This document shows, piece by piece, positions 10,096 through 51,603 of a stretch of 64,000 nt of DNA. The stretch comes from a virus (taxonomy: Duplodnaviria; Caudoviricetes), in IMG/VR virus record IMGVR_UViG_3300042755_000021, positions 1,903 to 65,902 of that record; one strand, given 5' to 3'. Position 1 is the stretch's first letter. Each line of letters opens with the position of its first letter. The position numbers and the translations under genes are program-made. The notes under the pieces were generated by a model. The model was not told the origin of the DNA, ran no database searches, and saw only the letters and a program-made list of their open reading frames with translations.

Positions 10096-10256
10096 TGGTG
10101 AAATACGGCTAATTTAGATCGACTGCATGGTATAACCTGCATAGACCTAGTGCACGAGCGTACTGTTAACTGCCGGCTCTCAGTTAGCGGTATGCAGTGA
10201 GCCGTCATAGACCCAAGGGGTGCAGCGCATGCGCTGCACCCTAGGGGTGTATGCCG
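10096..10256 (+). ncRNA. Candidate late small RNA
   Basis: TACTATG at ~10090, no usable ORF, internal stems, ends in hairpin 10218-10241 + TATGCCG. Confidence 0.35.
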
Positions 10257-10353
10257 TCACCGTAGTGATCTGATATATAATGTATGTCTCTTTTTTATTA
10301 CATTAGACGCAGTTAGTCTAGTACTATGAGTTAAAATTTATGAGGCGCTATTT

Positions 10354-10788
10354 ATGCAAACAATTCCATTGGAGTTGCGCCGTAATTGGGTGAAACTCCA
10401 AAACACTGAACAAGGGTGTTTGTTGCAAGCAGAGGCCGGGGAAGTAGTCTATTATTTTTATTCTGTATACCCTCCACCGCCAGAAGCTACCGGGATGGTA
10501 GAGGATGCGGTAGGCGGGCCTTCGCGTCTAAGAGGCGGTAGTATTTGGGTCCGCAGTAAGAACTGGAGCCGTATTTCCTACATCCCTTATAACGTGGATG
10601 GTGATACAGTAGAAGTTATCGTAGGTTCTTTGCCTAATCTGAACACTGATGATAAAACCGACGTTATCAGTGCCATTAACGAAGTCAACACCTTAGCTAA
10701 AACCAAAGTGGATAGTGACGCTATAGGCGACCTTAGCGCACCCTCCATTAATTTCACAGCCCAATATATAGAAGCGAGCCAGCCATGA
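10354..10788 (+). CDS. Fibre-associated virion protein
   Basis: C-terminal LNTDDKTDVISAINEV module shared with next gene; start of + strand late cluster. Confidence 0.7.
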   Translation: MQTIPLELRRNWVKLQNTEQGCLLQAEAGEVVYYFYSVYPPPPEATGMVEDAVGGPSRLRGGSIWVRSKNWSRISYIPYNVDGDTVEVIVGSLPNLNTDDKTDVISAINEVNTLAKTKVDSDAIGDLSAPSINFTAQYIEASQP

Positions 10789-11321
10789 GTTTAGTATCAC
10801 AAATCAATGCCTTAATCGTAGCCATCGGTGCGGATGTTAAAGACATTCGTGATAAAGCCGGTACACTAGCCAGTCTTAATACCACGGATAAAGCCAGCCT
10901 AGTAGCAGCAGTTAATGAAGTCAACACTGCACTAGGTGATGCCAGAGATGTATTAGATGCATTAATCAACGATACCTTAGGCGTCGGTACAGTAGACCAC
11001 GTATGGTCTATCGATAAAGTAATCAGTTATGTGCTATCAGTTAAATCCGATATCTTAGGTGGTATTGCCCCGACTACACTGGACACTATCTTCGAATTAG
11101 CCGCCGAACTACAAAATGCAGAAAACGATGTAGGCAGTATCTTTACTGCCTTAGGTTTTCGCGTTAGTGTGGATGCAGCTCAATCGTTCGATTCCACACA
11201 GCAGGCCCAAGGTCGTAGTAATATTGGCGCTGCTTCTGCGGCCGCATTAACGACATTAACCACCAACGTTGGTGACACAACTACTGATTTTACAGCAGCC
11301 TATGTAACCGCTAAAACGTGA
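10785..11321 (+). CDS. Head/tail fibre-like protein
   Basis: MSLVSQI..AIGADVK, LNTTDKASLVAAVNEV, TLDTIFELA, DAAQSF..QQAQGRSNIG fibre motifs. Confidence 0.75.
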   Translation: MSLVSQINALIVAIGADVKDIRDKAGTLASLNTTDKASLVAAVNEVNTALGDARDVLDALINDTLGVGTVDHVWSIDKVISYVLSVKSDILGGIAPTTLDTIFELAAELQNAENDVGSIFTALGFRVSVDAAQSFDSTQQAQGRSNIGAASAAALTTLTTNVGDTTTDFTAAYVTAKT

Positions 11322-11329
11322 GGTGACCC

Positions 11330-13975
11330 ATGAGTCTGGTATCGCAGCTAATAGCGGTAATACAGGCAATCGGTGCGGACATCAAAGCACTAGGCCAGTC
11401 TATTACGACCGGGCTAGCAGCTAAAGTCGATAAAGTGACAGGTAAAGCATTATCGACCAATGATCTGACCGATGCATTACTGGCCAGTCTAAACGTATCA
11501 CACTCATTCATTAAAGATACGTTTAGTGGCTCTTATATAGACGGTGGTGTACTAACACCTACCGGTGGTATTAATTTCAGTGTCTCAGCAGGTAGCGGCT
11601 ACGCTAGGGATAACCTGGGCGCAATCGTAGAGGTTAACTGGGGCACATTAACTGGCGCGTGTCTGACTAACGGAGATAATTTTATCGGTGTGGACTATAA
11701 CGGTGACTTAGTCATATCTACCACCTATATAGGGCCTGACCATATCGGCCTCGCTTATATAAACACCTACAACGGTAATACCGCGATAGCCGGTTTAAGT
11801 AACCTCCGGTTTAAAGCGCTAAACCACATCTACAACATGAACGACTACATCCGTAAAGTCATCGGGTCAATGGTGCATGATGGATGTAATATATCATTAC
11901 AGGCCAACCCTAACCAGTTAAAAGTAACACTGGGTAGTGGTGTGATGTGGTCTCAATACAATCCGCTAACTATATCGGATACCAGTACGTTCACTAAGTT
12001 ATTCGGTAGCCTACAGGGGTTCGTACCAGATACGACTAACCTTAACACGATTAACACGGCCTATTGGAACGACCGTAGTCAAAACTACGGTAGTGCGTTA
12101 GTTGCTCTTACCGCAGGGTACTATACGAAACACCTATTCTTCATTAACCCTGAAGGATTATTGTTTTTCCTATACGGCACCGCTCAATACGCGACGCTGG
12201 ATGATGCTAAACTAGCACCGGAACCACAAGCGCCTATCAGTATTAGTGCCAGTATCTGTCGGGTGGCTACGGTGATCGTACAACAAGGTGCGACTGATGT
12301 ATCAGTACTAAACGACACCAGACCGATCTTCCAGCGACTGTTCCAAACTGGCGTAGTGTCTAGCCCGTTAACCGTGGTAAGCCATCATGACTTAGTAGAT
12401 AACCAAGACGGCGATGACCATACGCAGTACCACAACGACACCCGTGGCGATATACGGTATTACCGTAAATCAGAAATCGTAGCGTTTTTATTGGGTAAAG
12501 CAGAGGCTACGCATACACACGTAGTTAGCGATATCACGGGATTGACCGCTACGCTAGCGACTTTAGCGACGTTGAATAGTCCTAATCTAACGGGTGTACC
12601 GACTGCCCCGACCGCGGCATATGGCACTAACACTACGGCATTAGCCACGACGCAATTCGTACAGACTGCGATGGCTCAGGCTATTGCTGATTTAATCGGT
12701 AGTGCGCCCGGTACGTTAGATCAACTAGCTGAAATCGCTACCGCCATTGGTAATGATCCTAATTTCGCGACTACATTAGCGAATCAGTTAGCCTTACGGT
12801 TAAGGATAGACGCGGCTCAAACACTGACAGCACCGCAGCAGGCCTTCGGTAGAGCTAACTTAGGGCTAGCAGCTAGCGCCACAGTCGACACCAGTACGAC
12901 CGCCAACATTACTGACGCTACGAATAAACGTTTTGTAACGGACGTGCTGTTAGCTGTACTCCAGTTAACGAGCGGTACCAACAGCGGTGACGAAACCACA
13001 GCGACTATTAAACTTAAGTTAGGGGCTGCTACAGCCTTAGCTGACGGTTATATGACATTAGCCGCGATGGGTAAGTTAGATGGTATCGCGGCTGGCGCTA
13101 ACAACTATGCCCACCCTAACCATAGCGGTGATGTGGCATCTACGGGTGATGGCGCTACGGTAATCCAACCGGGTGTGGTAGGTAATAGTAAACTAACCAA
13201 TATTGCCTCAGGGATCATAAAAGGACGAACTGCGGCCGGCACTGGTGCTGTAGAAGATCTAACGACTATAGATCTGTTATCGATGTTGTTAGCGGGTCAG
13301 TGGTATAAAGATGAAGACTTTCCACAGGGTGGTGTAGGGTTACAGGGGTTTTCGGCCGCACAAGCCGGTGCAGGTTCCGGCGTGACAGGTTTAGCTATTG
13401 CTGGGGTAGCTGGCGTAATACAGATGTCTACTGGTACTACGGCTACCGGCTGGTCAGCTGTAAACGACACACCGGCGGTATCGCATTTAATAGCGGGCGC
13501 AGGCGAGTTAGTAACCATCGCTAAATTCCAAATACCTGTATTATCAGTAGCCGCACAGCGGTTTAGTGTACGTATTGGTTTCGGGGATTCCACGACGTCG
13601 GCGGACAACGTAGATAGCGGCGGTTATATTGAATATACAGATACCGTAAACGGCGGTAACTGGGTATACTGCACCGCGTCAAACTCTACCCGTACTAAAA
13701 ACAACTCGGCGGTAGCCGCCGTAGCTCAAACAGGCGATAACTGGACTTATTTAAAGGCTATGGTAAACGCTGCTGGCACGCAAGCCGATATCTATCTGAA
13801 CAACACGTTGTTAGGTAGTATCACCACTAATATCCCTACTGGGACTGCCCGTGGGTTTGGTATGCATTTTGATATTGTCAAAACTATCGGTACTACTGCA
13901 CGGACGTTAAACATCGATAGAGTGTACCAACATATGGTCCGCAGCGATAGCGCTAGCCAGAACTGGAGGTTATAA
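11330..13975 (+). CDS. Long tail fibre protein
   Basis: 881 aa; SPNLTGVPTAPTA..TNTTALATTQFVQ, APGTLDQLAEIATAIGNDPNFATT, Y.HP.HSGDV, beta-rich C-terminal domain. Confidence 0.85.
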   Translation: MSLVSQLIAVIQAIGADIKALGQSITTGLAAKVDKVTGKALSTNDLTDALLASLNVSHSFIKDTFSGSYIDGGVLTPTGGINFSVSAGSGYARDNLGAIVEVNWGTLTGACLTNGDNFIGVDYNGDLVISTTYIGPDHIGLAYINTYNGNTAIAGLSNLRFKALNHIYNMNDYIRKVIGSMVHDGCNISLQANPNQLKVTLGSGVMWSQYNPLTISDTSTFTKLFGSLQGFVPDTTNLNTINTAYWNDRSQNYGSALVALTAGYYTKHLFFINPEGLLFFLYGTAQYATLDDAKLAPEPQAPISISASICRVATVIVQQGATDVSVLNDTRPIFQRLFQTGVVSSPLTVVSHHDLVDNQDGDDHTQYHNDTRGDIRYYRKSEIVAFLLGKAEATHTHVVSDITGLTATLATLATLNSPNLTGVPTAPTAAYGTNTTALATTQFVQTAMAQAIADLIGSAPGTLDQLAEIATAIGNDPNFATTLANQLALRLRIDAAQTLTAPQQAFGRANLGLAASATVDTSTTANITDATNKRFVTDVLLAVLQLTSGTNSGDETTATIKLKLGAATALADGYMTLAAMGKLDGIAAGANNYAHPNHSGDVASTGDGATVIQPGVVGNSKLTNIASGIIKGRTAAGTGAVEDLTTIDLLSMLLAGQWYKDEDFPQGGVGLQGFSAAQAGAGSGVTGLAIAGVAGVIQMSTGTTATGWSAVNDTPAVSHLIAGAGELVTIAKFQIPVLSVAAQRFSVRIGFGDSTTSADNVDSGGYIEYTDTVNGGNWVYCTASNSTRTKNNSAVAAVAQTGDNWTYLKAMVNAAGTQADIYLNNTLLGSITTNIPTGTARGFGMHFDIVKTIGTTARTLNIDRVYQHMVRSDSASQNWRL

Positions 13976-14577
13976 TGGCCACTGTTTTACATGTATTGAC
14001 TTACGGGTATACGGATAACCCCAAACAACTCCCGGCTGACTGGCCTGCTATTGTACACAACGTCCCGGACGATACGCCGTTACCAGCTAACTGGTTGTTG
14101 TTCGCGGACGATGACGCTTATCGAACATACGTAGCCACGCACAAACCCGCTTACGATGCTGCTATCGCCGTACAGTCGTTGGCTGCCCGCCGAGACGAAG
14201 CATGGGAAGCCATTAAAGCTTACCGTGATATGCGTGAATCCAGTGGTGTGAAAGTAGCCGTGGATGGCGTAGACTACTGGTTCCACAGTGACGTCAGATC
14301 TTTAATCAAATACCTGTTTTTGTTATTCTTATCCACGATATTCGCCAGCTATTTTCCGCCGGGTTTAAAATGGAAAACGATGTCAGATGCTGAGGTAGTC
14401 ATTACTACAGCTCTAGTAATCCAGGTGTTTTTTAAAGTATTTGAAGTTGGTGGGACGTTGTTTGCTATAGGTCGTCTACATCGTGCAGCTATGTTAGCTG
14501 CACCTGAACCATCTGAGTATAATTATCGTGAACCTGGGCCAGGGATTCCTCCCTGGCCTCCTATCTACGGAGAATGA
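13975..14577 (+). CDS. Tail fibre assembly protein, DUF4376-like
   Basis: AWEAIKAYRD..GVKV..YWFHSD; directly downstream of fibre. Confidence 0.75.
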   Translation: MATVLHVLTYGYTDNPKQLPADWPAIVHNVPDDTPLPANWLLFADDDAYRTYVATHKPAYDAAIAVQSLAARRDEAWEAIKAYRDMRESSGVKVAVDGVDYWFHSDVRSLIKYLFLLFLSTIFASYFPPGLKWKTMSDAEVVITTALVIQVFFKVFEVGGTLFAIGRLHRAAMLAAPEPSEYNYREPGPGIPPWPPIYGE

Positions 14578-14580
14578 GGA

Positions 14581-15078
14581 ATGTCAAAACTTATACTACC
14601 TACCGTGGAGGTAGCGTTTAGTCGATCACATCTACCGTTCAGTTACGGCATACGGGCTATTACTAGCCCGCCTGGCGAATGGATGGCTGAGTGGTCACAC
14701 TGCGCGCCTATCTTACCTAGTGGTAGAATCATCGAAGCCTCCGCATTACGCGGAGGTGTATTACAGGATACGTTAGCGAATTTTAAGCATCGCGCTACCA
14801 GCTGGGCTATTGCTGAATATGAATGTGCTGATCCTGATGCGTTCTATGAGTTCTTATTAGCGCAGGAAGGTAAGCGTTACGATTACACGGCGCTAATAGG
14901 GTTCTTAGCGCATAATCGTGATTATCAGCTAGATAGCGATTGGTTTTGCTCAGAGTTAGGTGAAACCGGTTTTATTAAAGGTGGCTCACCGCACTTCGCT
15001 GGTGTATTAAAAGGATTTGTATCACCTGAGGAGTTATGGTGCGAACGTTTACGTATAGTGACAGAATCAGCGGCATAA
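14581..15078 (+). CDS. Permuted papain-like (YiiX/YebB-like NlpC/P60) amidase
   Basis: WSHC..IIEAS..GV..YDY..WFCSEL: His before Cys. Confidence 0.8.
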   Translation: MSKLILPTVEVAFSRSHLPFSYGIRAITSPPGEWMAEWSHCAPILPSGRIIEASALRGGVLQDTLANFKHRATSWAIAEYECADPDAFYEFLLAQEGKRYDYTALIGFLAHNRDYQLDSDWFCSELGETGFIKGGSPHFAGVLKGFVSPEELWCERLRIVTESAA

Positions 15079-15118
15079 CGTCTAAGGACTACCCTAGGGT
15101 AGTCCTTAGGATATGCCG
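15071..15118. terminator. Bidirectional palindromic hairpin with TATGCCG on both strands
   Basis: CGGCATA 15071-15077, palindrome 15082-15109, TATGCCG 15112-15118 between convergent genes. Confidence 0.75.
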
Positions 15119-15493
15119 TTATAAACCATACACCACACTACCATCTTTACATTTATAATTACCCGGATATCGCTGACACGTCCCCGCTAATACACAAGCT
15201 TGTTTTAAAGAAGACATAACCTCGTCATATACCCCATAATCAATTAAACACAACACATCGAGTAGTTCAATAGACGCACGAAGCTTAATATACGTCGTAG
15301 CTATAGAGTCTTCCAGACAACCTATTACCATATAACGCTCAGGACACGCTATAATCGCATTTAAGTGCCTTACAGCTATAAACGAATACGATAGTACCTT
15401 AAGCTCACTATACCAGCGTATATACGCTAAACGGCGCCCAATAGGTATAGGCTCCCGTGGCTTAGCTAAGATCGCTAGATATTCCAGTAACAT
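15119..15493 (-). CDS. Hypothetical protein
   Basis: ORF fills gap, ends at the palindrome. Confidence 0.55.
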   Translation of the reverse strand: MLLEYLAILAKPREPIPIGRRLAYIRWYSELKVLSYSFIAVRHLNAIIACPERYMVIGCLEDSIATTYIKLRASIELLDVLCLIDYGVYDEVMSSLKQACVLAGTCQRYPGNYKCKDGSVVYGL

Positions 15494-15767
15494 AAGTCAC
15501 CCCAGTGATATATTCAATCACATAATCACCTATAGTAGCCCCAGGTGTTTTAAGATGCGCGCATATTACATCCATGAGTTGCGCGGACTGTATATTACTA
15601 GACTGCGCTAAATAAGCCGGTAAATCACTTACCCGCAACATATGTTCGGAATGTCCGTTAGTCCGCTGTATGATTAACAACCCCGCTGGCGCCAATGGCT
15701 TAGCATAAGCAATGATATGCCCGTACTCACCACAATAACTAATATCAATAGTCATGATAATCCCCAC
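15462..15767 (-). CDS. Hypothetical protein
   Basis: Co-oriented with 15119-15493. Confidence 0.55.
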   Translation of the reverse strand: MGIIMTIDISYCGEYGHIIAYAKPLAPAGLLIIQRTNGHSEHMLRVSDLPAYLAQSSNIQSAQLMDVICAHLKTPGATIGDYVIEYITGVTYVTGISSDLS

Positions 15768-15814
15768 TCTAAGTATGATTATGTGTAGTTATAGTTTACC
15801 CTGAGGTATAGTCC

Positions 15815-17032
15815 ATGTCTACGTTAAAGACCGTATTACAAGAGGCTTTTAAAGACCTCCGTATTGATCCTGCGTTGTTCTCACAAATACATCAGTATTC
15901 CGCTGCATTCGTTAACCGTAATGATGACCACATTCGTTTTTTCGGAGGCAACCTATTAGGCGTATACCCCGTACGATTTAAGTCTAGCGATAAAAATGAA
16001 TGGCTAGATGATATATTACATATCGATGAATCCGATACACGTGAAGCGATATTGCGATTACCCAGCATTAAGGAAAACTGGATCCGTGCAACGGACGTAA
16101 TGAACCTAAGCTGTTTATACTTAGTGCACGCCATTAAAGTTATCTATCAGTCTAAGCTCTCACCTATAGAACGTGAGCGAGTAATGATTGATGTGTTGAT
16201 GGTATTGCATTATAAGTTCTTCGGTAGTATCTTAGCGCATTATTTTAAATACCCCGCTGATGAAGCCACTGCACTGGCTACCTACGCTGCGCTGTCTAAG
16301 AAGTTCGCTATTAAGCAATACGGTAACTGGTATGCCGTATTAGAGAATCGGTGTAAAGACATTATCGCCGAGAACAGTATCCACTTTGAGACTATAGCGC
16401 GATTCGATGATGATGAAGCTATCATCTACATGATCACAGATACTCAAGGACGACTAAAGTCCATCGTTAAAAAGATATGGGCTGTATTCGAGGTCGTTAG
16501 ACAGCAGAACGCTAAGATCCTAACTGCCGGTGGTACTATTGAGTTAGATGGTAAAACTATCGTACGTGATGTATCACGAATGTATACACCTTATCGTCGT
16601 TATTTAGGTGAGATCGTCTCTGAACGAAATCGGTTTATTAAACCCGAACTCGTAGAGGTTATCGGTAGTGCTATGCATACGATGCCTGAAAAACTACTGA
16701 CCGATGTCTTGAGTTATATGGTAGACCACTATCAAGATAAACGCATTACTGCGTTATTAGACGAGACCATGCTACACGCGTTTGATTACCTATCTAACGA
16801 TCGACGAGCCCAAGACCGTATGAATGATATCGCTGCATTAATTGCTAAGTTACGGGCACTATATATGGCGTCTAGATCCACGGATCCTGCATTGATGAAG
16901 ATGCGTGAGCTAGGCGAGTCTATCGTACACAGCGCAGTAGTAGGCCGTAGCGCCGCCGTAGTGGCCTCTGTAAGAACTGGATTACTACTGTACATCGTGT
17001 TACGTACATTTACCATGAAGCACTATGGGTGA
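15815..17032 (+). CDS. Conserved phiKZ-like phage protein, probably virion structural
   Basis: 405 aa; H..FFGGNLLGV..VRF N-terminus recalled from jumbo phage core genes; GAGG RBS. Confidence 0.6.
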   Translation: MSTLKTVLQEAFKDLRIDPALFSQIHQYSAAFVNRNDDHIRFFGGNLLGVYPVRFKSSDKNEWLDDILHIDESDTREAILRLPSIKENWIRATDVMNLSCLYLVHAIKVIYQSKLSPIERERVMIDVLMVLHYKFFGSILAHYFKYPADEATALATYAALSKKFAIKQYGNWYAVLENRCKDIIAENSIHFETIARFDDDEAIIYMITDTQGRLKSIVKKIWAVFEVVRQQNAKILTAGGTIELDGKTIVRDVSRMYTPYRRYLGEIVSERNRFIKPELVEVIGSAMHTMPEKLLTDVLSYMVDHYQDKRITALLDETMLHAFDYLSNDRRAQDRMNDIAALIAKLRALYMASRSTDPALMKMRELGESIVHSAVVGRSAAVVASVRTGLLLYIVLRTFTMKHYG

Positions 17033-17038
17033 TCATCT

Positions 17039-17158
17039 ATGTTTATTAATCCACACCGAACTGTTGTTAGACACCACAGACCTGACCCTACTGGACCATT
17101 ACTCATATTACTCGTGATTATTTTAATTAGCATGGGGTTAATGTGGTGGGCACTATGA
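17039..17158 (+). CDS. 39-aa single-TM protein (holin/antiholin candidate)
   Basis: MFINPHRTVVRHHRPDPTGPLLILLVIILISMGLMWWAL; ATGA overlap with i-spanin start. Confidence 0.55.
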   Translation: MFINPHRTVVRHHRPDPTGPLLILLVIILISMGLMWWAL

Positions 17159-17697
17159 TACTATTAGCGTTCATCCGTAAACATTTGATGTCAATTATGG
17201 CTATAGTAGGATTAGGTTACGTTATTTACGGAATCTACCATATAGGGTATGTACAGGGCAGTAACGCCGTACAGCAACAATGGACGGATGCTAAATTTAA
17301 ATTAGCTAAAGAAACTATCCAGCGTCAAAATGCGTCTGCTGCTATTACCGATAAAGTTACACACGAGTACGTAACCCGTATTCAACTCGTCCAAGCCCGC
17401 CAACGTGTTCTAATTAAAGAGGTACCTCGCTATGTTACGCCACGCGCTGATACTCAGTGTGTCATTACTAACGGTTTCCGGATGCACTGGAACACCGCCA
17501 ATCAATCCCTATTGCCCGATCCCTCCGTCAGTCCTGATGCAGCCCCCGGTACGACTGAACTCTATGATACTCCCATTCAAATACGACTCAGTGACGTTGC
17601 CACCCAACATGCTGCTGAAGCCAGTAGATGCCAAGCCACCGAAGAACAACTAATACAACTACAACTATGGTTAACTGCTCAGCAGGCTATTCCTTAG
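17155..17697 (+). CDS. i-spanin (Rz-like)
   Basis: N-terminal TM then periplasmic helix (..GY..G..AVQQQW, TITDKVTHEYV-type segment); track start 17143, probable start 17155. Confidence 0.85.
   Translation: MILLAFIRKHLMSIMAIVGLGYVIYGIYHIGYVQGSNAVQQQWTDAKFKLAKETIQRQNASAAITDKVTHEYVTRIQLVQARQRVLIKEVPRYVTPRADTQCVITNGFRMHWNTANQSLLPDPSVSPDAAPGTTELYDTPIQIRLSDVATQHAAEASRCQATEEQLIQLQLWLTAQQAIP
17432..17653 (+). CDS. o-spanin (Rz1-like lipoprotein) embedded in the i-spanin in another frame
   Basis: Signal peptide + lipobox VSGC, Pro-rich mature part CPIPPSVLMQPP. Confidence 0.85.
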   Translation: MLRHALILSVSLLTVSGCTGTPPINPYCPIPPSVLMQPPVRLNSMILPFKYDSVTLPPNMLLKPVDAKPPKNN

Positions 17698-17699
17698 CC

Positions 17700-17753
17700 A
17701 AAAAAAAAAATAGCCTCACAGCGACCCGAAGGTCGCTGTAGGGTGCTATGCCG
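17700..17753. terminator. Bidirectional terminator: U-tract on minus, TATGCCG on plus
   Basis: A-run from 17699, ACAGCGACC-CGAA-GGTCGCTGT, TATGCCG 17747. Confidence 0.8.
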
Positions 17754-17830
17754 CCACTAGTATTTTCACGACTCCTCGCGAATGATTTATAATTTTAACG
17801 TGTTTATATCAATAACATAACACGAATGCA

Positions 17831-18559
17831 TTAGCAATAAGCCGCTACTACCGATGCATCTTTTACTTTACTACCTACCCAGCAATCGCTTGCTAGAGAG
17901 GCCTTGGCACCGACGCCGTATGGCACGTCACAGAAGGCCGCAGGACCGTCGTAACACTGCCATGATTCACTGCCTGTGGTCTTAACCCATAATAAGCCAG
18001 TGGGTGTTACACTGAGTTTAGCGTGCGTATCACCGCACTGACAGGAGCCCATGTTACCAGTGAACGTTACTACGCCTTTTGCTAATAACGCTTCAATCAT
18101 TGAACGCATATGCGTGTTGATGCGTTCGAAATCCATGCGGACGTACGATGGCTTCACATCCAACAGCGGACGGTAGATGTAGCCGATCAGTTCGTTCTTT
18201 ACTGCTCCGTCTATCGCGCCGTATACCCGCTCACGCCAGTAGTCTGAGAAATCACCCGCCTTATAAGGGCGGTATGCATTGCGTCGTGCCGTACTGTAAA
18301 CTACATCGTTAGGCTGACAGTAATACCATGCTTCTGGTATTACAAGGTCAGCTGGGATACCGTGCGTTTCACGGTAATGCTCGTTTACACTACCACCAGC
18401 TAGTGCCTTAGGACGATGACCCAGATAACACGGATCACCTGGCACCAGCCAGAAGAAGTCTAACCGCCGTAACGCAGCCGCCAACGTAACGACATCGATA
18501 GACACACCTTCGTTCAACACTACGTGTACATTTTGTTCCGCGAAATAAATGCTTTTCAT
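17831..18559 (-). CDS. Hypothetical early protein
   Basis: 242 aa ORF behind early-type promoter at 18.6 kb. Confidence 0.75.
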   Translation of the reverse strand: MKSIYFAEQNVHVVLNEGVSIDVVTLAAALRRLDFFWLVPGDPCYLGHRPKALAGGSVNEHYRETHGIPADLVIPEAWYYCQPNDVVYSTARRNAYRPYKAGDFSDYWRERVYGAIDGAVKNELIGYIYRPLLDVKPSYVRMDFERINTHMRSMIEALLAKGVVTFTGNMGSCQCGDTHAKLSVTPTGLLWVKTTGSESWQCYDGPAAFCDVPYGVGAKASLASDCWVGSKVKDASVVAAYC

Positions 18560-18594
18560 AACAGTATCCTTGACCTAGTTAATAGTGAGAGTGA

Positions 18595-18650
18595 GGAAGT
18601 TAGGCTTATGACTTCTCTCCCTTAAATAGTATATATCTGAAATAAAATGC
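18595..18650 (-). promoter_or_regulatory. Early-type promoter + conserved leader
   Basis: TCAGATATATACTATTTAAGGGAGA..TAAGCCTA; near-identical copy at 32.6 kb. Confidence 0.7.
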
Positions 18651-18674
18651 GTTCACGGCATATTGGCTAGCGGC

Positions 18675-19061
18675 CTAAGCCGCCTCACCATACCCACTAA
18701 ATAACCGATCCCCACGATCACTATAGACCTCTACGTATAACCCTTTCGCTAGAGCCAGTTTAATCATCTGCTTAGTACCAGGCGATTTACCATCCCATAT
18801 CGCTAATAGTGCATCCGCTAAGTCAGCCATCTCGCCATTACGAATATACCCTGCCCGCTTACCGTATCTATCCCAGTCAGCCGGCTTAGCCATAACCTCT
18901 AAACCATATTCGTCAGCTACGTCCTCACCTAGTGTGTCTACCCCGGGAGCTTTACCCGACACCACTGTAGTTACCGACCGTCTATACCGGAATCGCCTAA
19001 ACGCTAACCTAACAGTCTGGTATCTAGTTACACCACGACTTCCCGCTATAATAAGCTTCAT
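18675..19061 (-). CDS. SLOG family protein (YspA/DUF2493-like)
   Basis: LIIAGSR..VVSG.APGVDTLGE..ADWDRYGKRAGYIRN.EMA..ADAL.A.WDGKSPGTK.MI. Confidence 0.9.
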   Translation of the reverse strand: MKLIIAGSRGVTRYQTVRLAFRRFRYRRSVTTVVSGKAPGVDTLGEDVADEYGLEVMAKPADWDRYGKRAGYIRNGEMADLADALLAIWDGKSPGTKQMIKLALAKGLYVEVYSDRGDRLFSGYGEAA

Positions 19062-19537
19062 GTCTTACGTAAAACATTAACGGCATCATGTACTGCCATA
19101 ATGACCGCGTTAGATTCAGCAACCTTTAACAGCAGCTGTTGCGAATCGTACAGCGTAATTAATAGATGTCTTACGTATTTATAATTAGCCGTAGCACGCG
19201 CCCGATGGCAGCTCGCTAATGCTAACTGTATAGAGTGTATATACAGTAACAGTAACATCACGATTATAACGGGTATAAACAGAGCAGTCTGTACATCATT
19301 TGGTAAATGTAAACGATTCAGGAGTATGGGTATTAGCAGCAACGTTACAATTAACCAGATTCCTGATGGATTAGCCCCAGGGTACGGTGGAGCCCAGTTA
19401 ATGCTTAGGGTGTTAGGGTCTTTGAAAAAGGTAATATGTCCATCGTCACCAATCGTGTATATAGATCTAAAAATAGGGGCATCCGCTTCATGGTCTAGTT
19501 CGAACTGCATAGCAGACGGTATTGGTACTCGCATCAT
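19058..19537 (-). CDS. Two-TM membrane protein
   Basis: Two hydrophobic segments (IWLIVTLLLIPILL; LFIPVIIVMLLLLYI). Confidence 0.65.
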   Translation of the reverse strand: MMRVPIPSAMQFELDHEADAPIFRSIYTIGDDGHITFFKDPNTLSINWAPPYPGANPSGIWLIVTLLLIPILLNRLHLPNDVQTALFIPVIIVMLLLLYIHSIQLALASCHRARATANYKYVRHLLITLYDSQQLLLKVAESNAVIMAVHDAVNVLRKT

Positions 19538-19589
19538 AATAGGCTCCGGTATTTATAGTACACACATTACGTTGCGTTGTTTAAAATAA

Positions 19590-19625
19590 CGGCATAGGTA
19601 GTGTACGGCCTAGGCCGTACACTAC
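19590..19625 (-). terminator. Palindromic hairpin + TATGCCG after terminase
   Basis: GTAGTGTACGGCCTAGGCCGTACACTAC then CTATGCCGTT on minus strand. Confidence 0.75.
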
Positions 19626-19632
19626 TCGTTGT

Positions 19633-21816
19633 TTAGTAGTAATCCACACTCTGTGCCGAATGCCTAAATCGTCTGTCACGCATCTGCTGCTGCACACGTT
19701 TAACGCGCTGCTTAGAGGCGTCTGATAATAAATTATCTAACGAGTTAGCATCGATGTATTCTTCCGTGAGTTTAGCATCCAGTGATTTAATACGGCTTTC
19801 TAAACGTAAAGCCAACATCTCATCATTCGTCCCGCGTAACGATACGAGTAAATCCTCTATATCTAACCGTACGCGCGCCTGTCTAACTTTATCGTAGTTT
19901 TCCACAGGCGTTAACACCCGTTTGTGAACCTCACCTTCCTTATACTCAGACACACCTGATAATGCATTCTTAATACCATAGAATGCTAGGTTTTTAGAAC
20001 TAGTCAAGAACCACACGCCTAATAACCAAGCTACTACCATATCGTCATGTCCATCACTCGAATGATCAATCCTACCGTTCTTGGAAACCAATCCCGTGAT
20101 CTCATCAATCAGGCGTTTATCATTAGCGGTGTCACAGCACAACATTGCCGCGCGTAACAACGTATCGGAGTACAGCGCCCCACGACTATGTCTGCCGCTA
20201 CCCGCCGTAACAAATCCAAATAACCGTTTAGACCGATCGTAGAAGTGTTGATTACGACGCTGCATACCATCCTGTACCTGCCTAAACTCCTCTTTGTATT
20301 CTATAGGATCATCTACTACTAAGTTATAAATCCGTTTAAATGGATCGATTCCTTTAGTAGATAATATTACGATTAGTGCATCGATTAAACCCATACCTGA
20401 GCTCTTACGTTCAGGTATAACCGTAATCGTAGGATACTGTATTAATAGATCAGCCATGTAACCTGCGAAATAATACAGATTAGCCTCACTGCAATTAGAG
20501 GCTGCTACCACTTCCAATGTAGATGTATCCATAATTACCATGGTGATGGAATCCTTACCTACACCCTCACTGGTATCCATACCCATAACGAATGTACCAC
20601 TAGACATCCGACGCTGGATCTCATCCAGCGGTATATACCAGCGTAACAGATAATTGTCTTTAGATATCTGCACGTGTTTAGGATCACGCTGTGCTTTGCG
20701 TAACCGATCGTTCAACGCAGTAGGTAATGGTGAGGATAACCCACCACTCGTCCATTTGTTAAAGAAGTCACGATCCGCCGCTTCGCCTTGCGAGTTGTTA
20801 TCCCGTAACTGTTTTAACAACCACTTATCAGTATACCCTAGTTGGCGATGAGACAATGTAATGTTAACTAATGGCATTAACCCTGGCGAGTTTTTCTCTA
20901 CGATAGCGTGTAGCTCGCGCTCATTAGTCGCATCGTATAAGAACTCAGTCCATGGCATACCGCCAGACAACAAATCAAACATGTACTTACCGCTAGGATC
21001 ATCTTTCTTACCGGCAGTCGTCGTGAATATCGTACCGTACGGCGTACCAAATTGTTCAGCTTCTTCCCGTGCTGCTGTACCTGATGCTAGCATAGCCGAT
21101 AGAGTAGTCTTAATGAATGGACAGAAAGGACCCTCATCGATTGTTGTAATCGGTGCTGTCAAACCCCGTCCTACGTTGTTAGCACCTGCTTCAGAGTTCT
21201 GTGGTACACAGGTGGTATATACGTTGTTACGTTTATTACATTCTACTTCGATTGTGTTATCCGAATCTGTTTTATCACGCGCTTGTAGATACGGGGGTAA
21301 GTACCCCCGTATCTCTTTAAGCCGCTCCACGTTAGCCACCCGTAACGCATTATCTTTAGTTAACAAGTTAATACGCGTATTGAAACAGATGATGTATAAC
21401 AGATAGGAGTTTAATAAATCCGTTCCTAGTGATTTACCAGTCTGACGTGGCTGAATCAGAAACGGTCTGATGTGCGCAAAAAAACACCAGAACAACGCGA
21501 TATTACCACGATTAGCCCGTAATGGCAAACCCACTGGACTACCGCCCTGAGGCGGTACCCTAGCTACTTCCCTAAAGAAATACCATGGGTTGCGCTTTAC
21601 CTCAGCAGCAACCATAGCAATCTGCTCCTCCGTGATATTAGGGTCATGCGGATCTACGAATTCCAACTCAGGCTGCGTTAGCACTAGAAAGAAGTAATAG
21701 TTCTTAACCCCCATAGCCCGGAGCTTTTCAGCTAACTGTAGGAACGAGGTGTTGCTGGTAGACTCGTGGATAATACTGTTCGGATATTTTCTAAAGTCCT
21801 CTAAGAATAAAATCAT
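19633..21816 (-). CDS. terL: Terminase large subunit (phiKZ gp25-like)
   Basis: Walker A PRQTGKS, Walker B TTIDE, nuclease GMDTSEG and GHDD; synteny. Confidence 0.93.
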   Translation of the reverse strand: MILFLEDFRKYPNSIIHESTSNTSFLQLAEKLRAMGVKNYYFFLVLTQPELEFVDPHDPNITEEQIAMVAAEVKRNPWYFFREVARVPPQGGSPVGLPLRANRGNIALFWCFFAHIRPFLIQPRQTGKSLGTDLLNSYLLYIICFNTRINLLTKDNALRVANVERLKEIRGYLPPYLQARDKTDSDNTIEVECNKRNNVYTTCVPQNSEAGANNVGRGLTAPITTIDEGPFCPFIKTTLSAMLASGTAAREEAEQFGTPYGTIFTTTAGKKDDPSGKYMFDLLSGGMPWTEFLYDATNERELHAIVEKNSPGLMPLVNITLSHRQLGYTDKWLLKQLRDNNSQGEAADRDFFNKWTSGGLSSPLPTALNDRLRKAQRDPKHVQISKDNYLLRWYIPLDEIQRRMSSGTFVMGMDTSEGVGKDSITMVIMDTSTLEVVAASNCSEANLYYFAGYMADLLIQYPTITVIPERKSSGMGLIDALIVILSTKGIDPFKRIYNLVVDDPIEYKEEFRQVQDGMQRRNQHFYDRSKRLFGFVTAGSGRHSRGALYSDTLLRAAMLCCDTANDKRLIDEITGLVSKNGRIDHSSDGHDDMVVAWLLGVWFLTSSKNLAFYGIKNALSGVSEYKEGEVHKRVLTPVENYDKVRQARVRLDIEDLLVSLRGTNDEMLALRLESRIKSLDAKLTEEYIDANSLDNLLSDASKQRVKRVQQQMRDRRFRHSAQSVDYY

Positions 21817-27106: not shown

Positions 27107-27189
27107 ATTTTACCCATTAGGGTAATCAATAAACTATTACTATGATGTGTGTGTAACACATTCATACAATCTGCACTGGGAGCATTGCG

Positions 27190-29503: not shown

Positions 29504-30370
29504 ATGGCAAGATTTAGTAATACATTTATTGGTCAACAAGCTTACGGCCAAACGAGCTTGACGCCAATGATCGATGTAACTAACGGCGGTCAGTTTGGGC
29601 TGTTGACGGACTTCCCGCATTATATTTCATCTACTCCGTATGTACGCCGTAATATCGTTTGTCGTGTTATCGACTTGCCACGCGGATTCGATTTCCTCCC
29701 TAACCCGGAGAAATTTCGTGCTGCGGTTAAAGCGATGTTTGAGCTACATCCGAAAGCAATTGACTTAGGTAATACCAAGCTTACTGTTGAGTCGGTTGAT
29801 ACACCAGTAGGTGGTTCTGGTGAGAAACTTGAAACACCTTCTAACGTAACGCGTGGTGTAGTAGAACCTAACTTCACGTTGGTAGAACGCCAAGGTCGTC
29901 CGTTTACGGCTATTTTGGAAACATGGGTAACGTTCTTAATCATGGATCCGATTACTAAGATTCCGCGCTTAGTTACACTGGCTCAAAACAAAGGTAAGAT
30001 CATCGATTTGCTACCGGATTTTATCGGCGCTACGATGTTGTTTTTCGAACCAGATCCAACGTTTACTAAGGTAGAGAAAGCTTGGCTATCTACTAACATG
30101 TATCCGAAAGAAACACCGGACGAAGAAGGTAAATTCGATAAAACTACCGCAGGCGATCTTCTAGAGTTCCAACTCCCAATGACCGCATTAACACAGGTAG
30201 GCTACGGCGTTAAGTTGTTAGCACAGCAGTTGTTAAATGAAATTAATTTAACAGGCGCTAACCCTAATACACGTCCTGCATTTATTGATGCGATCTCGCC
30301 TGATGTATTGGCAGCTAACGGTTTTGCCGAACAGCTCGCTAGTGCAGCTAGCACCGCGATCAAAATCTGA
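29504..30370 (+). CDS. Tail tube protein (phiKZ gp30-like)
   Basis: 288 aa after sheath; PYVRRN, PDPT..VEKAWL.TNMYPK. Confidence 0.88.
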   Translation: MARFSNTFIGQQAYGQTSLTPMIDVTNGGQFGLLTDFPHYISSTPYVRRNIVCRVIDLPRGFDFLPNPEKFRAAVKAMFELHPKAIDLGNTKLTVESVDTPVGGSGEKLETPSNVTRGVVEPNFTLVERQGRPFTAILETWVTFLIMDPITKIPRLVTLAQNKGKIIDLLPDFIGATMLFFEPDPTFTKVEKAWLSTNMYPKETPDEEGKFDKTTAGDLLEFQLPMTALTQVGYGVKLLAQQLLNEINLTGANPNTRPAFIDAISPDVLAANGFAEQLASAASTAIKI

Positions 30371-30377
30371 TCATACG

Positions 30378-30417
30378 CTCCCCTCAGAGCCGTAAGGCTC
30401 TGAGGGGAGATATGCCG
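30378..30417 (+). terminator. Hairpin + TATGCCG after tail tube
   Basis: CTCCCCTCAGAGCC-GTAA-GGCTCTGAGGGGAG then ATATGCCGT. Confidence 0.8.
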
Positions 30418-39970: not shown

Positions 39971-40092
39971 CTTAGTATTCCAATAGTTAAAAGTAGGTAG
40001 TCTATACAGTACAGCTAAGGTTGTACTGTATAGCGTGAGTTGACATTACAGGTTAATAATGTATATCGGTAATTAATTACAGTCAGAGTGCA

Positions 40093-43541: not shown

Positions 43542-43557
43542 GTTTAATACTCCAAAA

Positions 43558-43788
43558 TTATCGAACTAATCCGCAGTAACCCTTACCCGTCTTTACGGGT
43601 ATGCGTTTAACGGGTCGCACTGACTCAACGCCAGTCTTAGGCACAATGTCTTTAGGGTCGGCTTCCATAACAACTTCATCCACCCAAGCCATACAGTCCC
43701 CACCAAGACAATTACGTCCTGCATTAGTCGATATACTAGCCACACAGATTTTAAAATAGGCATCGTTTTGCGTGTATACGTTCGGCAT
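43558..43788 (-). CDS. Small Cys-motif protein
   Basis: C..CLGGDCMAW..GYCGL; first gene after AT-rich promoter. Confidence 0.65.
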   Translation of the reverse strand: MPNVYTQNDAYFKICVASISTNAGRNCLGGDCMAWVDEVVMEADPKDIVPKTGVESVRPVKRIPVKTGKGYCGLVR

Positions 43789-43847
43789 GTTAATAACCCT
43801 CGTGTTAATAATAGGAGTGTGTGTACACTCCTAGTGATAATATATAC

Positions 43848-45824: not shown

Positions 45825-45864
45825 AAAAAGTTATCCGTTAATAATACATATCTTACTAAAAGAC

Positions 45865-45900
45865 ATAAAAAAGAAAGGACTGCTTACGCAGTCCTTTCGT
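45865..45900 (-). terminator. Rho-independent terminator
   Basis: AAAGGACTGC-GTAA-GCAGTCCTTT + CTTTTTT. Confidence 0.85.
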
Positions 45901-45912
45901 TAGGTTATGCCC

Positions 45913-46755: not shown

Positions 46756-46767
46756 GGTAGTATACTC

Positions 46768-47706: not shown

Positions 47707-47707
47707 G

Positions 47708-48205: not shown

Positions 48206-48248
48206 GTGCTACACCCTACTAATAACACGATTAATACGAATAATAATT

Positions 48249-48752
48249 TCACGACATACCCTCCGACTGTGATGCCCTATCTTTAAGCGCAGCATTAATA
48301 GCGTGTATAACTTCAGTAATCATAACCGCATCGAACCGCCGCCGCAACGGCAATACCATGGGTATACCTAGCTGGTCTAATAGCTGTGTTAAGGCCAGAC
48401 TTAGCATTACGCGTTCGGCGTTGGTAGCCAATATCGTACCATACGTAAAAATGGTAGGTACGCCTTCCATAACAACGTCATTACGCTCAGTGGCCATAAC
48501 TACAACGTATTGCGTATCGACTGGTGGATCGCGTAGATCATGCACTCCTAGGTAGTATTCTTTAGAGCCAATCACATTTGATTTTTTATCCAGATACACC
48601 TGGATAAATAGATAATCCCCGTTGGCTTCAGTAGCGTTAATAAAAGCCAAGTAATCCTGTAGCCGCGCAGTTGGACTAATAGTCAGATGCATACAGAATT
48701 CAATTAGTTGTCTAAGTGCGGGAGACCCGCGCGATTCGCCTGGTTCGTGCAT
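48249..48752 (-). CDS. Hypothetical protein
   Basis: Co-oriented ORF. Confidence 0.55.
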   Translation of the reverse strand: MHEPGESRGSPALRQLIEFCMHLTISPTARLQDYLAFINATEANGDYLFIQVYLDKKSNVIGSKEYYLGVHDLRDPPVDTQYVVVMATERNDVVMEGVPTIFTYGTILATNAERVMLSLALTQLLDQLGIPMVLPLRRRFDAVMITEVIHAINAALKDRASQSEGMS

Positions 48753-48757
48753 GGTAA

Positions 48758-49048
48758 TTACCTCGATTTGTTAATAGTGCCGTTGATAGGGAGGCGGGGT
48801 TTATAGTCAGTATCCTCCCAGACCGTGGTTTGGGTTTCGATGTTCCAGATATGCGCATCCTGCCCACCGAATATGTTATTAGGGCTGGAGTCGTAGTGTC
48901 GCTGCGCGGCTGCTACGAGCTGTTCGATAGCTTCGTCCTGTGTGGGGTATACACCCACTAGATCGGATATACCGCCTTTGGGATAATAGTTCAGGGATAG
49001 AAACGCCATAAAGGTCGGCTTGGGTGCTACCACGGTATCAGACATCAT
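48758..49048 (-). CDS. Hypothetical protein (YYPxGG motif)
   Basis: NYYPKGGISDLVG. Confidence 0.65.
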   Translation of the reverse strand: MMSDTVVAPKPTFMAFLSLNYYPKGGISDLVGVYPTQDEAIEQLVAAAQRHYDSSPNNIFGGQDAHIWNIETQTTVWEDTDYKPRLPINGTINKSR

Positions 49049-49269
49049 AACCCTCCTGGAAACATATCCAGTGCTAATCGATAAATACCCATGTAGATCA
49101 GTACGATAACCGCCAACCCCATGGATCCCAAAAACAATTTTAACAGCGGCCAGGTCTTTAGGTTACCAGGGATCTTAACAGCTCCTGACTTAGTAAACCA
49201 TCCCGCTATAAAACCCAGTACTGCAAACATAAACAACACCAGGAGTATGAGTCCTATAACTGCCTTCAT
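49045..49269 (-). CDS. Two-TM small membrane protein
   Basis: Two hydrophobic segments; ATGA overlaps on both sides. Confidence 0.65.
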   Translation of the reverse strand: MKAVIGLILLVLFMFAVLGFIAGWFTKSGAVKIPGNLKTWPLLKLFLGSMGLAVIVLIYMGIYRLALDMFPGGL

Positions 49270-49613
49270 GGTAGTAATCCCAGTAGTGTATTAATACGGC
49301 TAAGTTCGTCTTCGGTAAATGCACCGTGTGCCAACTTAACCACTAAAAGCTGGTGTTCGAATGATAGTTTATTAATCCGCACCACGCCATTCGATAGATC
49401 GGCTAATAGTACAAGATCAGTGAGTGCTATACCGCGTAGACCGAAAAACTCCTGTAGTTTAACAACCCAGTCGTCAGATATATGCGCTGTGCCAGACTCC
49501 ATTTTGTTTATGTAAGAAGACGTAACACCCAACTGTAACGCCATATCTTTTAAACGCAGATTAGAATCTATACGCGCGTGTTTAATACGTCTCCCAAACA
49601 TAGTAGTCGGCAT
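49266..49613 (-). CDS. XRE-family HTH protein
   Basis: FGRRIKHARI..LKDMA.QLGVTSSYINKMESG. Confidence 0.88.
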   Translation of the reverse strand: MPTTMFGRRIKHARIDSNLRLKDMALQLGVTSSYINKMESGTAHISDDWVVKLQEFFGLRGIALTDLVLLADLSNGVVRINKLSFEHQLLVVKLAHGAFTEDELSRINTLLGLLP

Positions 49614-49617
49614 TTAA

Positions 49618-50154
49618 TCACTCGTCAGCAGATTCCATGGTAATACACGTTTCCGTAGGCGTTAGTCCAGTGCGAGCCACCAGCTCGTCCATAACCTGTA
49701 CCACGGTATCAGAGCCTACGTACATATCCAGATCCACAGACATAGTAAACTTACCACAGATTGCTTCGATAACCTGCACTACGGTATCAGGGCCTATATA
49801 CATATCCAGATCCAACACCCGGCGGATTACACTGATATCCCAGCCCATCGTTTCAGCGAGGTCGTCCGCATCAAGCTGACGGCGAATCATCAGGTTGTGT
49901 AGCTCTATCTTTAGCGTAACTAAGATACCCAACGCTATAGTAAACTGGCCATCCTTAGGAGGCGTCCACGGTTGTATAGGCAAACGTTGCGCCATTAATA
50001 GGTTTAACTGACGATAGATCTCCTGTTTAAGAAACCGCAGACATTGGTCTCCGTTGTAGGCGCGTACTATCAAATCATCGAAGTCATCCACCCACATCGA
50101 TATCTTACCCGCACCATCTACGTGGCTATTATAACTTACTTTCATTACTGGCAC
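49618..50154 (-). CDS. HicB-like antitoxin with HTH and duplicated C-terminal segment
   Basis: HicB-type N-domain, KIELHNLM..LAETMGW..IRRVLD; DLDMYIGPDTVVQV / DLDMYVGSDTVVQV. Confidence 0.7.
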   Translation of the reverse strand: MPVMKVSYNSHVDGAGKISMWVDDFDDLIVRAYNGDQCLRFLKQEIYRQLNLLMAQRLPIQPWTPPKDGQFTIALGILVTLKIELHNLMIRRQLDADDLAETMGWDISVIRRVLDLDMYIGPDTVVQVIEAICGKFTMSVDLDMYVGSDTVVQVMDELVARTGLTPTETCITMESADE

Positions 50155-50905
50155 CTTTTAGGTTAGTTTCGTGGATAGTAATTAACTCATTAAGACGAGT
50201 CAACGTAGAGGCGATCAGTACCGTACACTGTACCATTTCGCCATCGACGTAATCGGATTCACTCGCGTAGATGATCATCCATGCGCTGTCCGTATCACAG
50301 CAACGCTGCTGATCCACCGCAGATAAAAACACAGATGGATGCCAGGATTCTTTAGCCATCATATCTGCGAACGATAGAAAGTGTGATGTATGCGGGTTAT
50401 GCATAATGGTCAGCATCCGGTGCTCTGGTAGTTTAGCTTCCGTTATCGAAGCGTAAATCTCCTTAGGATCCCAAACGATCAAATAGAACGGTCTAGGCAT
50501 TACTACCGGCGTATCATCAACGATCATGTTGCTACCTACAGTAGCCGTAGCCCGTAGATCGCCGTTAGCTATCGCTTCTAATATATCCACAAACTCAGGG
50601 TCATTACTAAACCAACCCTCCGCAGCAGCGCGTGTAACTAATGGCTCCACATCATCCAGATATTCTTCATCGTTAATGACATACCCGCCTACTGGCATCG
50701 GTATCAACGTACGGACTTGATGTCCTGGGATAGTAGGTAGCACATTAACGAACGACACCACCCCTAGTTTAGAGGCATGCATACCGAAGGTTTCAATTAC
50801 TCGATCGCTTAAATCAGCGCCTACCGCAGCACGGTAGTCTGCAATGGCTTTTTCAGTAGCCGCACTATTACAGTTAGTCCAGATTCTAAAATTAGTGGTT
50901 GACAT
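50129..50905 (-). CDS. Hypothetical protein
   Basis: 258 aa, GAGA RBS. Confidence 0.7.
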   Translation of the reverse strand: MSTTNFRIWTNCNSAATEKAIADYRAAVGADLSDRVIETFGMHASKLGVVSFVNVLPTIPGHQVRTLIPMPVGGYVINDEEYLDDVEPLVTRAAAEGWFSNDPEFVDILEAIANGDLRATATVGSNMIVDDTPVVMPRPFYLIVWDPKEIYASITEAKLPEHRMLTIMHNPHTSHFLSFADMMAKESWHPSVFLSAVDQQRCCDTDSAWMIIYASESDYVDGEMVQCTVLIASTLTRLNELITIHETNLKGASNESKL

Positions 50906-50982
50906 GTTAATGGTCTCGTAAAAATATAAATGGGTAGTTACTGGTAACGAGCGTACATGCGCTCGTTACCAGTGGTAATGGT

Positions 50983-51420
50983 TTAGGCTGTAGCTGCGCG
51001 TTTAGCAGCTGTGCGTAATACGTGACTGACAGCTTCAATATCGCGATTATGGTCAGTTGCTACATATGCACCAATAAAGTTAATAGGCGTAGTAGCATCA
51101 GTACCGCGTGTAGCGGCAAATGATACGACGTCCTCACCTATCTTGGTTTCAAAGGACATCTGAGTCAGTTCGGAGTTTTCGCTCATAGCTTGCTGCATTA
51201 ACTCACCTGCTACTAAGTGCGTAGCCGCTTGGAATGCTTGGCGGTGATCGTGCGTTTGTTTAACCTGAGCCAGTGTCAACCCAGTGCCTTCTAACGTAGA
51301 CTCATACAGGTTATCGCCAGCATTAATCACATCACCGTTAGCAGTCATCAATGGACGGATCTGGGCTGCGATGGACGAAACAGTTTTGGATGGTTTAGTA
51401 ACAGACATGATAGTCTCCAT
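50983..51420 (-). CDS. Hypothetical protein, stand-alone transcription unit
   Basis: GGAG RBS (start MSVTK), AT-rich promoter ~51535, hairpin 50939-50974. Confidence 0.75.
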   Translation of the reverse strand: METIMSVTKPSKTVSSIAAQIRPLMTANGDVINAGDNLYESTLEGTGLTLAQVKQTHDHRQAFQAATHLVAGELMQQAMSENSELTQMSFETKIGEDVVSFAATRGTDATTPINFIGAYVATDHNRDIEAVSHVLRTAAKRAATA

Positions 51421-51565
51421 TAGTTTAAGTAGATGAGCTACACGGACTCAGTTTTATAGTGTATGATAAGCGATGGTAGGCTAACCCTAACATCAGATAA
51501 CCAGTAAACATTTTAATTTAATGGCTGTCCTGTAAATAATATATATGCTAATTATTATAGAATCA

Positions 51566-51603
51566 CGGCATATTACTAAAGGATGGCCTAGGCCATCCTT
51601 TAG
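51566..51603 (-). terminator. Palindromic hairpin + TATGCCG after head protease
   Basis: CTAAAGGATGGCCTAGGCCATCCTTTAG then TAATATGCCGTG on minus. Confidence 0.75.

Follow-up and report, generated by a model that had tools for sequence, protein, structure and literature searches.

Background

How are transcripts ended in a phage whose gene-end hairpins carry a fixed sequence in the place of a U-tract? The question is raised by a 64,000-base stretch of viral DNA (hereafter the window), in which the heptamer TATGCCG follows stable hairpins at eight intergenic positions. The window is part of an IMG/VR contig of 65,902 bases (IMGVR_UViG_3300042755_000021; ~24% complete) from a sediment metagenome, and is assigned here to an uncultivated phiKZ-like jumbo phage. 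An original prediction, made from the letters of the window, took the hairpin and heptamer for a sequence-specific terminator or processing signal of the non-virion RNA polymerase. We conclude that hairpin + TATGCCG(T) elements are very probably transcription terminators of a Chimalliviridae phage and represent a form of the conserved motif of phiKZ and 201phi2-1. The signal is not new; the element itself is already known, and the phiKZ-type motif was published in 2024 (PMC10914365).

In phiKZ, ONT-cappable-seq (Putzeys et al. 2024) gave 133 termination regions, 61 of which have in common the motif BCCYCCCCHWWDGGGRRGGBYTTATKYYGT, in which TTATKYYGT comes after a stem-loop; the published phiKZ tables also give 66 late transcription start sites (PMC10914365). 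A strong resemblance to this motif is reported for motif A, the most frequent terminator motif in 201phi2-1 (PMC11512511). The late-promoter core for the non-virion polymerase of phiKZ is 5'-TATG-3', with transcription starting at its G (Yakunina et al.), and a sigma-like subunit is a permanent part of that polymerase (PMC12809450).

Results

Hairpins and TATGCCG in the window

All eight of the predicted pairs of hairpin and TATGCCG are present, the minus-strand sites having been given by their higher coordinate. The tails directly follow the hairpins, at a distance of 0-6 nt (mostly 1-3). Taken by itself the heptamer is not in excess: the window holds 14 copies against 11.9 +/- 3.4 expected, and 14 or more were obtained in 28 of 100 shuffles. 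Enrichment of TATGCCG in the genome was thus rejected, since the count is at chance level and the link to hairpins is the only non-random part. Eight of the 14 copies are intergenic and lie 3' of a stable stem-loop, while the other six fall inside genes, have no hairpin and are without sign of conservation. Strong hairpins, defined as perfect stems of at least 9 bp with a GC fraction of at least 0.4, number 20 in the window (40 flanks). TATGCCG lies within 9 nt in seven of these flanks, against 0.044 expected (Poisson P ~6e-14), and TATG is present in 12, against 1.5 expected. The enrichment anticipated by the prediction is thus found after hairpins and not in the window overall.

The anatomy of the element combines an invariant tail with stems that are unrelated among the eight sites. 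The 70-nt contexts of these sites have folding energies of -23 to -41 kcal/mol; perfect stems of 9-14 bp are present at seven of them and a 6-bp stem at the remaining one (18656-18662, minus strand). A G-rich 3' arm is found only in the stems at 30378, 17718 and 10212. The base after TATGCCG is T at six sites and C at two, and a T-rich lead-in before TATG is absent from all eight. The claim that no U-tract accompanies the TATGCCG tails was borne out: an intrinsic-terminator consensus scan over 10-20 kb flagged none of six TATGCCG-tailed strands, and passed only the T11 side of the hairpin at 17.7 kb and the antisense side of the terminase hairpin. A stop codon precedes seven of the eight sites on their own strand, the exception being the 10.2 kb site, and the element is carried by all three well-supported convergent junctions of the window and by one of its four divergent junctions.

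Placement across related loci

A Megablast search of 50,697 phage records returned no near relative of the window, and neither did a single-protein scan of viral contigs; relatives were recovered only with an alignment as the query. The comparative set obtained by this alignment-based scan consists of 80 IMG/VR loci of ~20 kb, which with the window make 81 loci, 1.59 Mb and 441 strong hairpins. In the 12 nt 3' of these hairpins TATG is the most enriched 4-mer, occurring in 29% of flanks against a background of 1.9% (15-fold). When overlap with the stem end is allowed, TATG is found at 42% of flanks (3.6% background) and in 75 of the 81 loci. The commonest heptamer at the hairpin flanks is TATGCCG (117 cases), and the tail consensus is TATG followed by Y (0.85), Y (0.86), G (0.63) and T (0.49), most often starting 2 nt past the stem.

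The elements are placed at gene ends and convergent junctions. Hairpin + TATG occurs at 80 convergent and 12 divergent junctions (216 and 226 being available), and hairpin + TATGYYG at 49 and 5, respectively. Between co-directional genes TATGYYG is on the sense strand in 28 cases and on the antisense strand in 10, and one-sided TATG tails are sense in 31 and antisense in 14. In the first 50 kb of phiKZ, hairpin + TATG[CT][CT]G follows gp23, gp30.1, gp31.1/gp32, gp35, gp49 and gp51/gp52, and hairpin + TATG is present at four of four convergent and none of four divergent junctions.

This distribution bears on the possibility of a dual signal, in which the hairpin would terminate the upstream unit and the TATG of the tail would act as a late promoter, starting at its G, for the next gene or for an antisense RNA. 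In favor of this, the proven core of phiKZ late promoters is TATG with initiation at the G, the tails at 10250 (+), 18656 (-), 19590 (-) and 51566 (-) face a downstream gene 56-149 nt away, and the 10.2 kb element is divergent with its tails pointing outward at both flanking genes. However, a promoter at a convergent junction would serve no gene, and it is toward these junctions that the placement is skewed (80 against 12); tails on both strands are also kept at the convergent tail-tube junction in relatives, as described below. The conserved promoter context of the tail-sheath gene differs, having neither a hairpin nor CCG, separate promoter-like boxes are located between three of the terminators and the next gene, and TATG alone is insufficient for promoter activity in phiKZ. 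We therefore regard a dual signal as unlikely.

Conservation of the tail at the tail-tube junction

At the end of the tail-tube gene the tail is conserved amid turnover of the stem. In relatives whose tail-tube proteins show 93%, 77% and 62% identity a hairpin occupies the same convergent junction with a wholly different stem, and TATGCCG is retained, in two of the three on both strands. With a perfect hairpin of at least 7 bp required within 110 nt after the stop codon, 64 of the 80 loci have a hairpin at this junction, and 52 of the 64 carry TATG on the tube-sense tail, typically as (T)TTATGCCGT. Several of the loci counted as hairpin-less carry this tail after an imperfect stem. The stem sequence changes across most of the 80 loci and is a variable feature of the family, whereas the tail is kept across lineages ranging from ~33% to 60% GC.

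Most lineages that seemed to be without TATG tails had TATG inside the perfect stem. The few true exceptions (e.g. L063, L093 and L020) showed no readable sheath promoter when checked for covariation of tail and promoter. In locus L019 (~10870-10930) the tail-tube hairpin is followed by TTTTGCCGC, in which GCCG is kept and TATG is lost, and in L063 (10878-10915) a plain T-run takes the place of the tail. Such tail-replacing lineages could be natural tests of which part of the tail matters.

Two further explanations can be weighed against this pattern. In the first, RNA processing or stability, transcription would read through and a nuclease would cut in or near UAUGCCG, leaving the hairpin to protect the new 3' end. 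A fixed single-stranded sequence beside a protective hairpin is the usual layout of a processing site, and 3'-end mapping by itself cannot separate processing from termination. Nevertheless, the tail is conserved though the nearest named relatives infect hosts as different as Pseudomonas, Xanthomonas, Erwinia and Klebsiella, which argues for a phage-encoded reader, and TATG is the recognition motif of the polymerase itself. Moreover, in a reporter tested in uninfected cells, transcription was halted by several 201phi2-1 terminators that had been selected to represent the motifs (PMC11512511). Processing is, in our judgment, highly improbable. In the second, the element would act as DNA, either as a cruciform serving replication, recombination or packaging or as a mobile palindromic repeat, and several of the hairpins are indeed perfect palindromes centred on CCTAGG. 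We give this explanation almost no credence: the stems are unrelated between copies and between relatives, which is not expected of a mobile repeat, placement follows gene ends and strand, and the homologous phiKZ motif coincides with RNA 3' ends (PMC10914365).

Individual elements

The genes flanking the elements had been described as amidase/fibre, spanin, terminase, tail tube and head protease units. A tail-fibre/tail-protein operon, an Rz-like spanin gene and the large terminase, tail-tube and head-protease genes were recognized, and the amidase was left unconfirmed. The list of tails was correct for its eight members and incomplete, as it missed TATGACG at 10203, TATGATC at 30369 and TATGTCT at 45861 (all on the minus strand) and TATGCCC at 45906 on the plus strand.

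The element at 10203-10256 is two-sided and lies in the divergent region 10052-10353, and not after a plus-strand late unit as had been claimed for its 10250 tail. Its extended hairpin (10212-10247, perfect core 10218-10241) is flanked by TATGCCG at 10250-10256 (+) and TATGACG at 10203-10209 (-), each 2 nt from the stem. A second two-sided element (15071-15118) separates the tail-fibre operon, which ends at 15078 (+), from the convergent gene 15119-15493 (-); its hairpin (15082-15109) is a perfect palindrome with CCTAGG at the apex, and TATGCCG is present at 15112-15118 (+) and 15071-15077 (-). At the convergent junction 17700-17753 the hairpin 17718-17739 (extended to ~17746) is followed by TATGCCG at 17747-17753 (+), at the end of the Rz-like spanin gene (17143-17697), and on the minus strand by a T11 run (plus-strand A-run 17700-17710) at the end of the gene 17831-18559. 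This pairing of a T-run on one strand with TATGCCG on the other is as originally described.

Between two minus-strand genes, at 18656-18684 (-), a short stem-loop of 6 pairs (18669-18684) is separated by 6 nt from TATGCCG at 18656-18662. Its loop holds the stop codon of the gene 18675-19061, and the AT-rich box GATATATACTAT comes next at 18626-18637. The element after the large terminase gene (19633-21816) spans 19590-19625 (-) and consists of a hairpin at 19598-19625 with a 13-bp perfect stem and a CCTAGG apex, 1 nt, and TATGCCG at 19590-19596. After the tail-tube gene (29504-30370, +), at a convergent junction (30369-30417), a hairpin with a 14-bp stem (30378-30409) is followed after 1 nt by TATGCCG at 30411-30417, with TATGATC (30369-30375) as the tail on the minus strand. 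The Peptidase_S80 head-protease gene (51609-52394) is followed by the element 51566-51603 (-), in which the hairpin 51576-51603 has a 13-bp perfect stem and a CCTAGG apex; TATGCCG at 51566-51572 (-) is 3 nt from the stem, and an AT-rich box is next at 51536-51547. A variant member at 45861-45912, which was not among the sites first listed, has a minus-strand gene on either side and lies upstream of the DNA ligase gene. On the sense side of its hairpin (45873-45898) is a phiKZ-like tail of TTTTT + TATGTCT (45861-45867, -), and on the antisense side TATGCCC (45906-45912, +).

CCTAGG is the exact apex of perfect palindromic hairpins with arms of 10-14 bp at 15093, 19609, 31151, 32319 and 51587; a perfect palindrome gives the identical hairpin from either strand. 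This apex role applies to five of the 13 CCTAGG sites of the window, the hexamer itself is not enriched, and three of the five hairpins belong to the eight sites.

Outside the eight sites, three long hairpins without TATG follow minus-strand genes at 4521-4556, 40002-40033 and 50940-50973. They have in common, on the minus strand, a tail of (A)CTACC or TACC with TTTA 3-4 nt later (TACCGTCTATTTATT, ACTACCTACTTTTAA and AACTACCCATTTATA), which recalls the phiKZ middle-promoter box AAanTTACc (PMC4666361). This tail may define another class of terminator, or a promoter directly next to the hairpin.

Late-promoter-like boxes and the 10.2 kb element

Ahead of the tail-sheath gene lies the late-promoter-like box AAACTATTACTATGATG (27125-27147, +), with no preceding hairpin and no CCG after its TATG, the context of which is ATTACTATGATG. 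All three relatives (93%, 77% and 62% protein identity) retain the box, the two closer ones together with a longer downstream block, and a similar sheath box with G replacing C before TATG is found in more distant loci. An AT-rich box, GATATATA(C/A/T)TAT, follows three TATGCCG terminators at a distance of 20-30 nt and precedes the next gene in each case (10272-10283, +; 18626-18637, -; 51536-51547, -). These boxes are probably separate promoters for the next gene, and the pattern is not enriched window-wide (28 matches against 32 expected). In an attempt to build a promoter consensus from intergenic TATG contexts and the AT-rich box, conservation supported the sheath box only.

The sequence ATTACTATG at 10087-10095 (+) is identical to the core of the sheath promoter box (27136-27144), and the two-sided 10.2 kb element lies ~120 nt downstream of it with no open reading frame (ORF) between. 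The element is probably a promoter-proximal (leader) terminator or an insulator ahead of the tail-fibre operon. On the simplest reading it could act as an attenuator, or mark where a short non-coding transcript stops (a leader or small RNA of ~160 nt), and the adjacent genes on the minus strand would be protected by the tail on that strand. Similar pairings of promoter and terminator, as well as short RNAs derived from 5' untranslated regions, have been reported in 201phi2-1 and phiKZ (PMC11512511, PMC10914365).

The phage and its genes

The window encodes a phiKZ-type tail sheath, a tail tube (PF23806), a large terminase, a Peptidase_S80 head protease and an NAD-dependent ligase, as well as gp26-, gp27- and gp28-like virion proteins and split RNA polymerase beta-type genes. 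Gene order corresponds to gp25-gp30 of phiKZ, including terminase-sheath-tube. Sheath identity to the named jumbo phages of Xanthomonas, Klebsiella, Erwinia and Ralstonia is just 35-40%. Because its gene content and order are phiKZ-like, its sheath identity is low and no near phage record was found, the phage can be placed, by its predicted genes, as a distant and uncultivated member of the Chimalliviridae. The genes of the non-virion polymerase are absent from the 66-kb fragment. Of the sequencing runs listed as containing window positions 10000-19999, two are DNA runs from sediment metagenomes and none is an RNA run.

A virion-RNA-polymerase-type gene (PHROG 3148, a profile of 1424 positions) is in two pieces at 54904-61132 (-), an N-terminal ORF of 576 aa (59402-61132) and a C-terminal ORF of 861 aa (54904-57489). 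Between them are an HNH/homing endonuclease gene (57906-59363) and a small ORF. This arrangement suggests an intron with a homing endonuclease; at the Rfam gathering threshold no group I intron was matched at the split gene, and no match was obtained across the whole window.

Discussion

Terminator or promoter

The original prediction favored a terminator over a gene promoter, and we uphold this choice because the elements match the phiKZ motif, are skewed toward convergent junctions and keep their tail while their stems turn over. Specificity for the non-virion polymerase, the other part of that prediction, gained no support from the analysis. They would end the transcripts of structural (late) gene units, on one or both strands. 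The rule hairpin + TATGYYG would then show where transcription units stop in most uncultivated Chimalliviridae (75 of the 81 loci), and predictors that require a hairpin and a U-tract would miss these terminators in annotation.

Several points count against a terminator role. RNA 3' ends at the window elements are, for this phage, predicted by homology to the mapped phiKZ and 201phi2-1 motifs. The placement counts in the 81 loci depend on a crude gene annotation (greedy ORFs, minimum 80 aa). The divergent region around the 10.2 kb element has no annotated gene end, and a leader terminator or insulator has to be assumed to accommodate the element. Antisense tails occur between co-directional genes (45906, +; 35 of 87 tail-bearing co-directional flanks in the 81 loci), and these are not required by a pure gene-end role. 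TATG is also known as the late-promoter core, so a second role is possible. Lastly, GCCG in the tail makes for a strong RNA:DNA hybrid, whereas a U-tract makes for a weak one.

A possible model for termination

As a terminator, the element may work as follows. The hairpin would form in the nascent RNA while the multisubunit RNA polymerase of the phage is slowed on the tail, which would stand in for the U-tract; the short U-rich lead-in of AT-rich relatives, with which their tail could pass for a short U-tract, is missing here. Recognition of the tail probably depends on its sequence, most simply via the non-template-strand TATG pocket used at late promoters, and the transcript would be released at or just after UAU|G. 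Since the tail is kept from ~33 to 60% GC, stems turn over and the U-rich lead-in can be lost, our results suggest that the tail is recognized as sequence by the phage machinery and is not merely a weak RNA:DNA hybrid.

We tentatively propose, as a possibility we hold well short of even, that the tail is read during elongation by the TATG pocket of the beta-like subunit (GP123 in phiKZ) that sets the late start site. With the RNA 3' end at the U before G, the bubble would occupy the register of the open promoter complex (-3 to +1). The enzyme would stall on TATG, and the hairpin 4-6 nt behind would release the transcript without a U-tract. In a polymerase with a built-in, non-exchangeable promoter reader, one pocket could thus serve both start and stop.

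Such a pocket would account for the avoidance of TATG in genes on both strands. In 72 non-redundant Chimalliviridae loci (from L015-L094 and the window), TATG inside ORFs of at least 200 aa occurs at 0.73 (sense strand) and 0.67 (antisense strand, counted as CATA) of the frequency expected from codon shuffling. It ranks 13 (sense) and 5 (antisense) from the bottom of the 256 tetramers, alongside Shine-Dalgarno-like words and homopolymers. This avoidance is compatible with a genome-wide transcription signal, and it cannot separate start from stop. A link between the pocket and termination is not mentioned in the phiKZ polymerase structural papers or in the phiKZ/201phi2-1 transcriptome papers (PMC12809450, PMC10914365, PMC11512511). 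If true, pocket reading would be a new termination mode for multisubunit RNA polymerases.

Comparison with known systems

The likeness to a canonical intrinsic bacterial terminator is that of a stable, GC-rich RNA hairpin that ends a transcription unit and is two-sided at convergent genes. Unlike that terminator, the window elements have no U-tract, and the 8-9 nt past the stem read nnUAUGCCG, a fixed sequence in the place of the U-run. Canonical intrinsic terminators were ruled out on this ground, the usual U-tract being about five or more U within 8-9 nt of the stem.

Class II signals of T7 are hairpin-free, have a conserved ATCTGTT-type sequence and are read by a single-subunit polymerase. 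They resemble the window tails in that a short fixed sequence, and not a U-run, is tied to termination by a phage-encoded polymerase. The analogy drawn in the original prediction nevertheless fits poorly: the window tails always accompany a hairpin, the polymerases are multisubunit and there is no sequence similarity. An analogue in the strict sense was ruled out because a hairpin precedes the tail wherever it is conserved.

The phiKZ late promoter has the same tetranucleotide TATG as the window tail. In contrast to the tail, it has no hairpin before it and nothing conserved after TATG, whereas the terminator tail continues as YYG(T); the hairpin tails, moreover, are mostly found where no gene lies downstream.

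The phiKZ terminator differs in having near-fixed CCYCCCC/GGGRRGG stems, a U-rich YTT lead-in and a degenerate tail, whereas the window has diverse stems, no lead-in Ts and an invariant TATGCCG tail. In both, a GC-rich stem-loop is directly followed by TATKYYGT, of which TATGCCGT of the window is an exact instance, and in two phages of the same family these elements are placed at gene ends, with two-sided copies between convergent genes.

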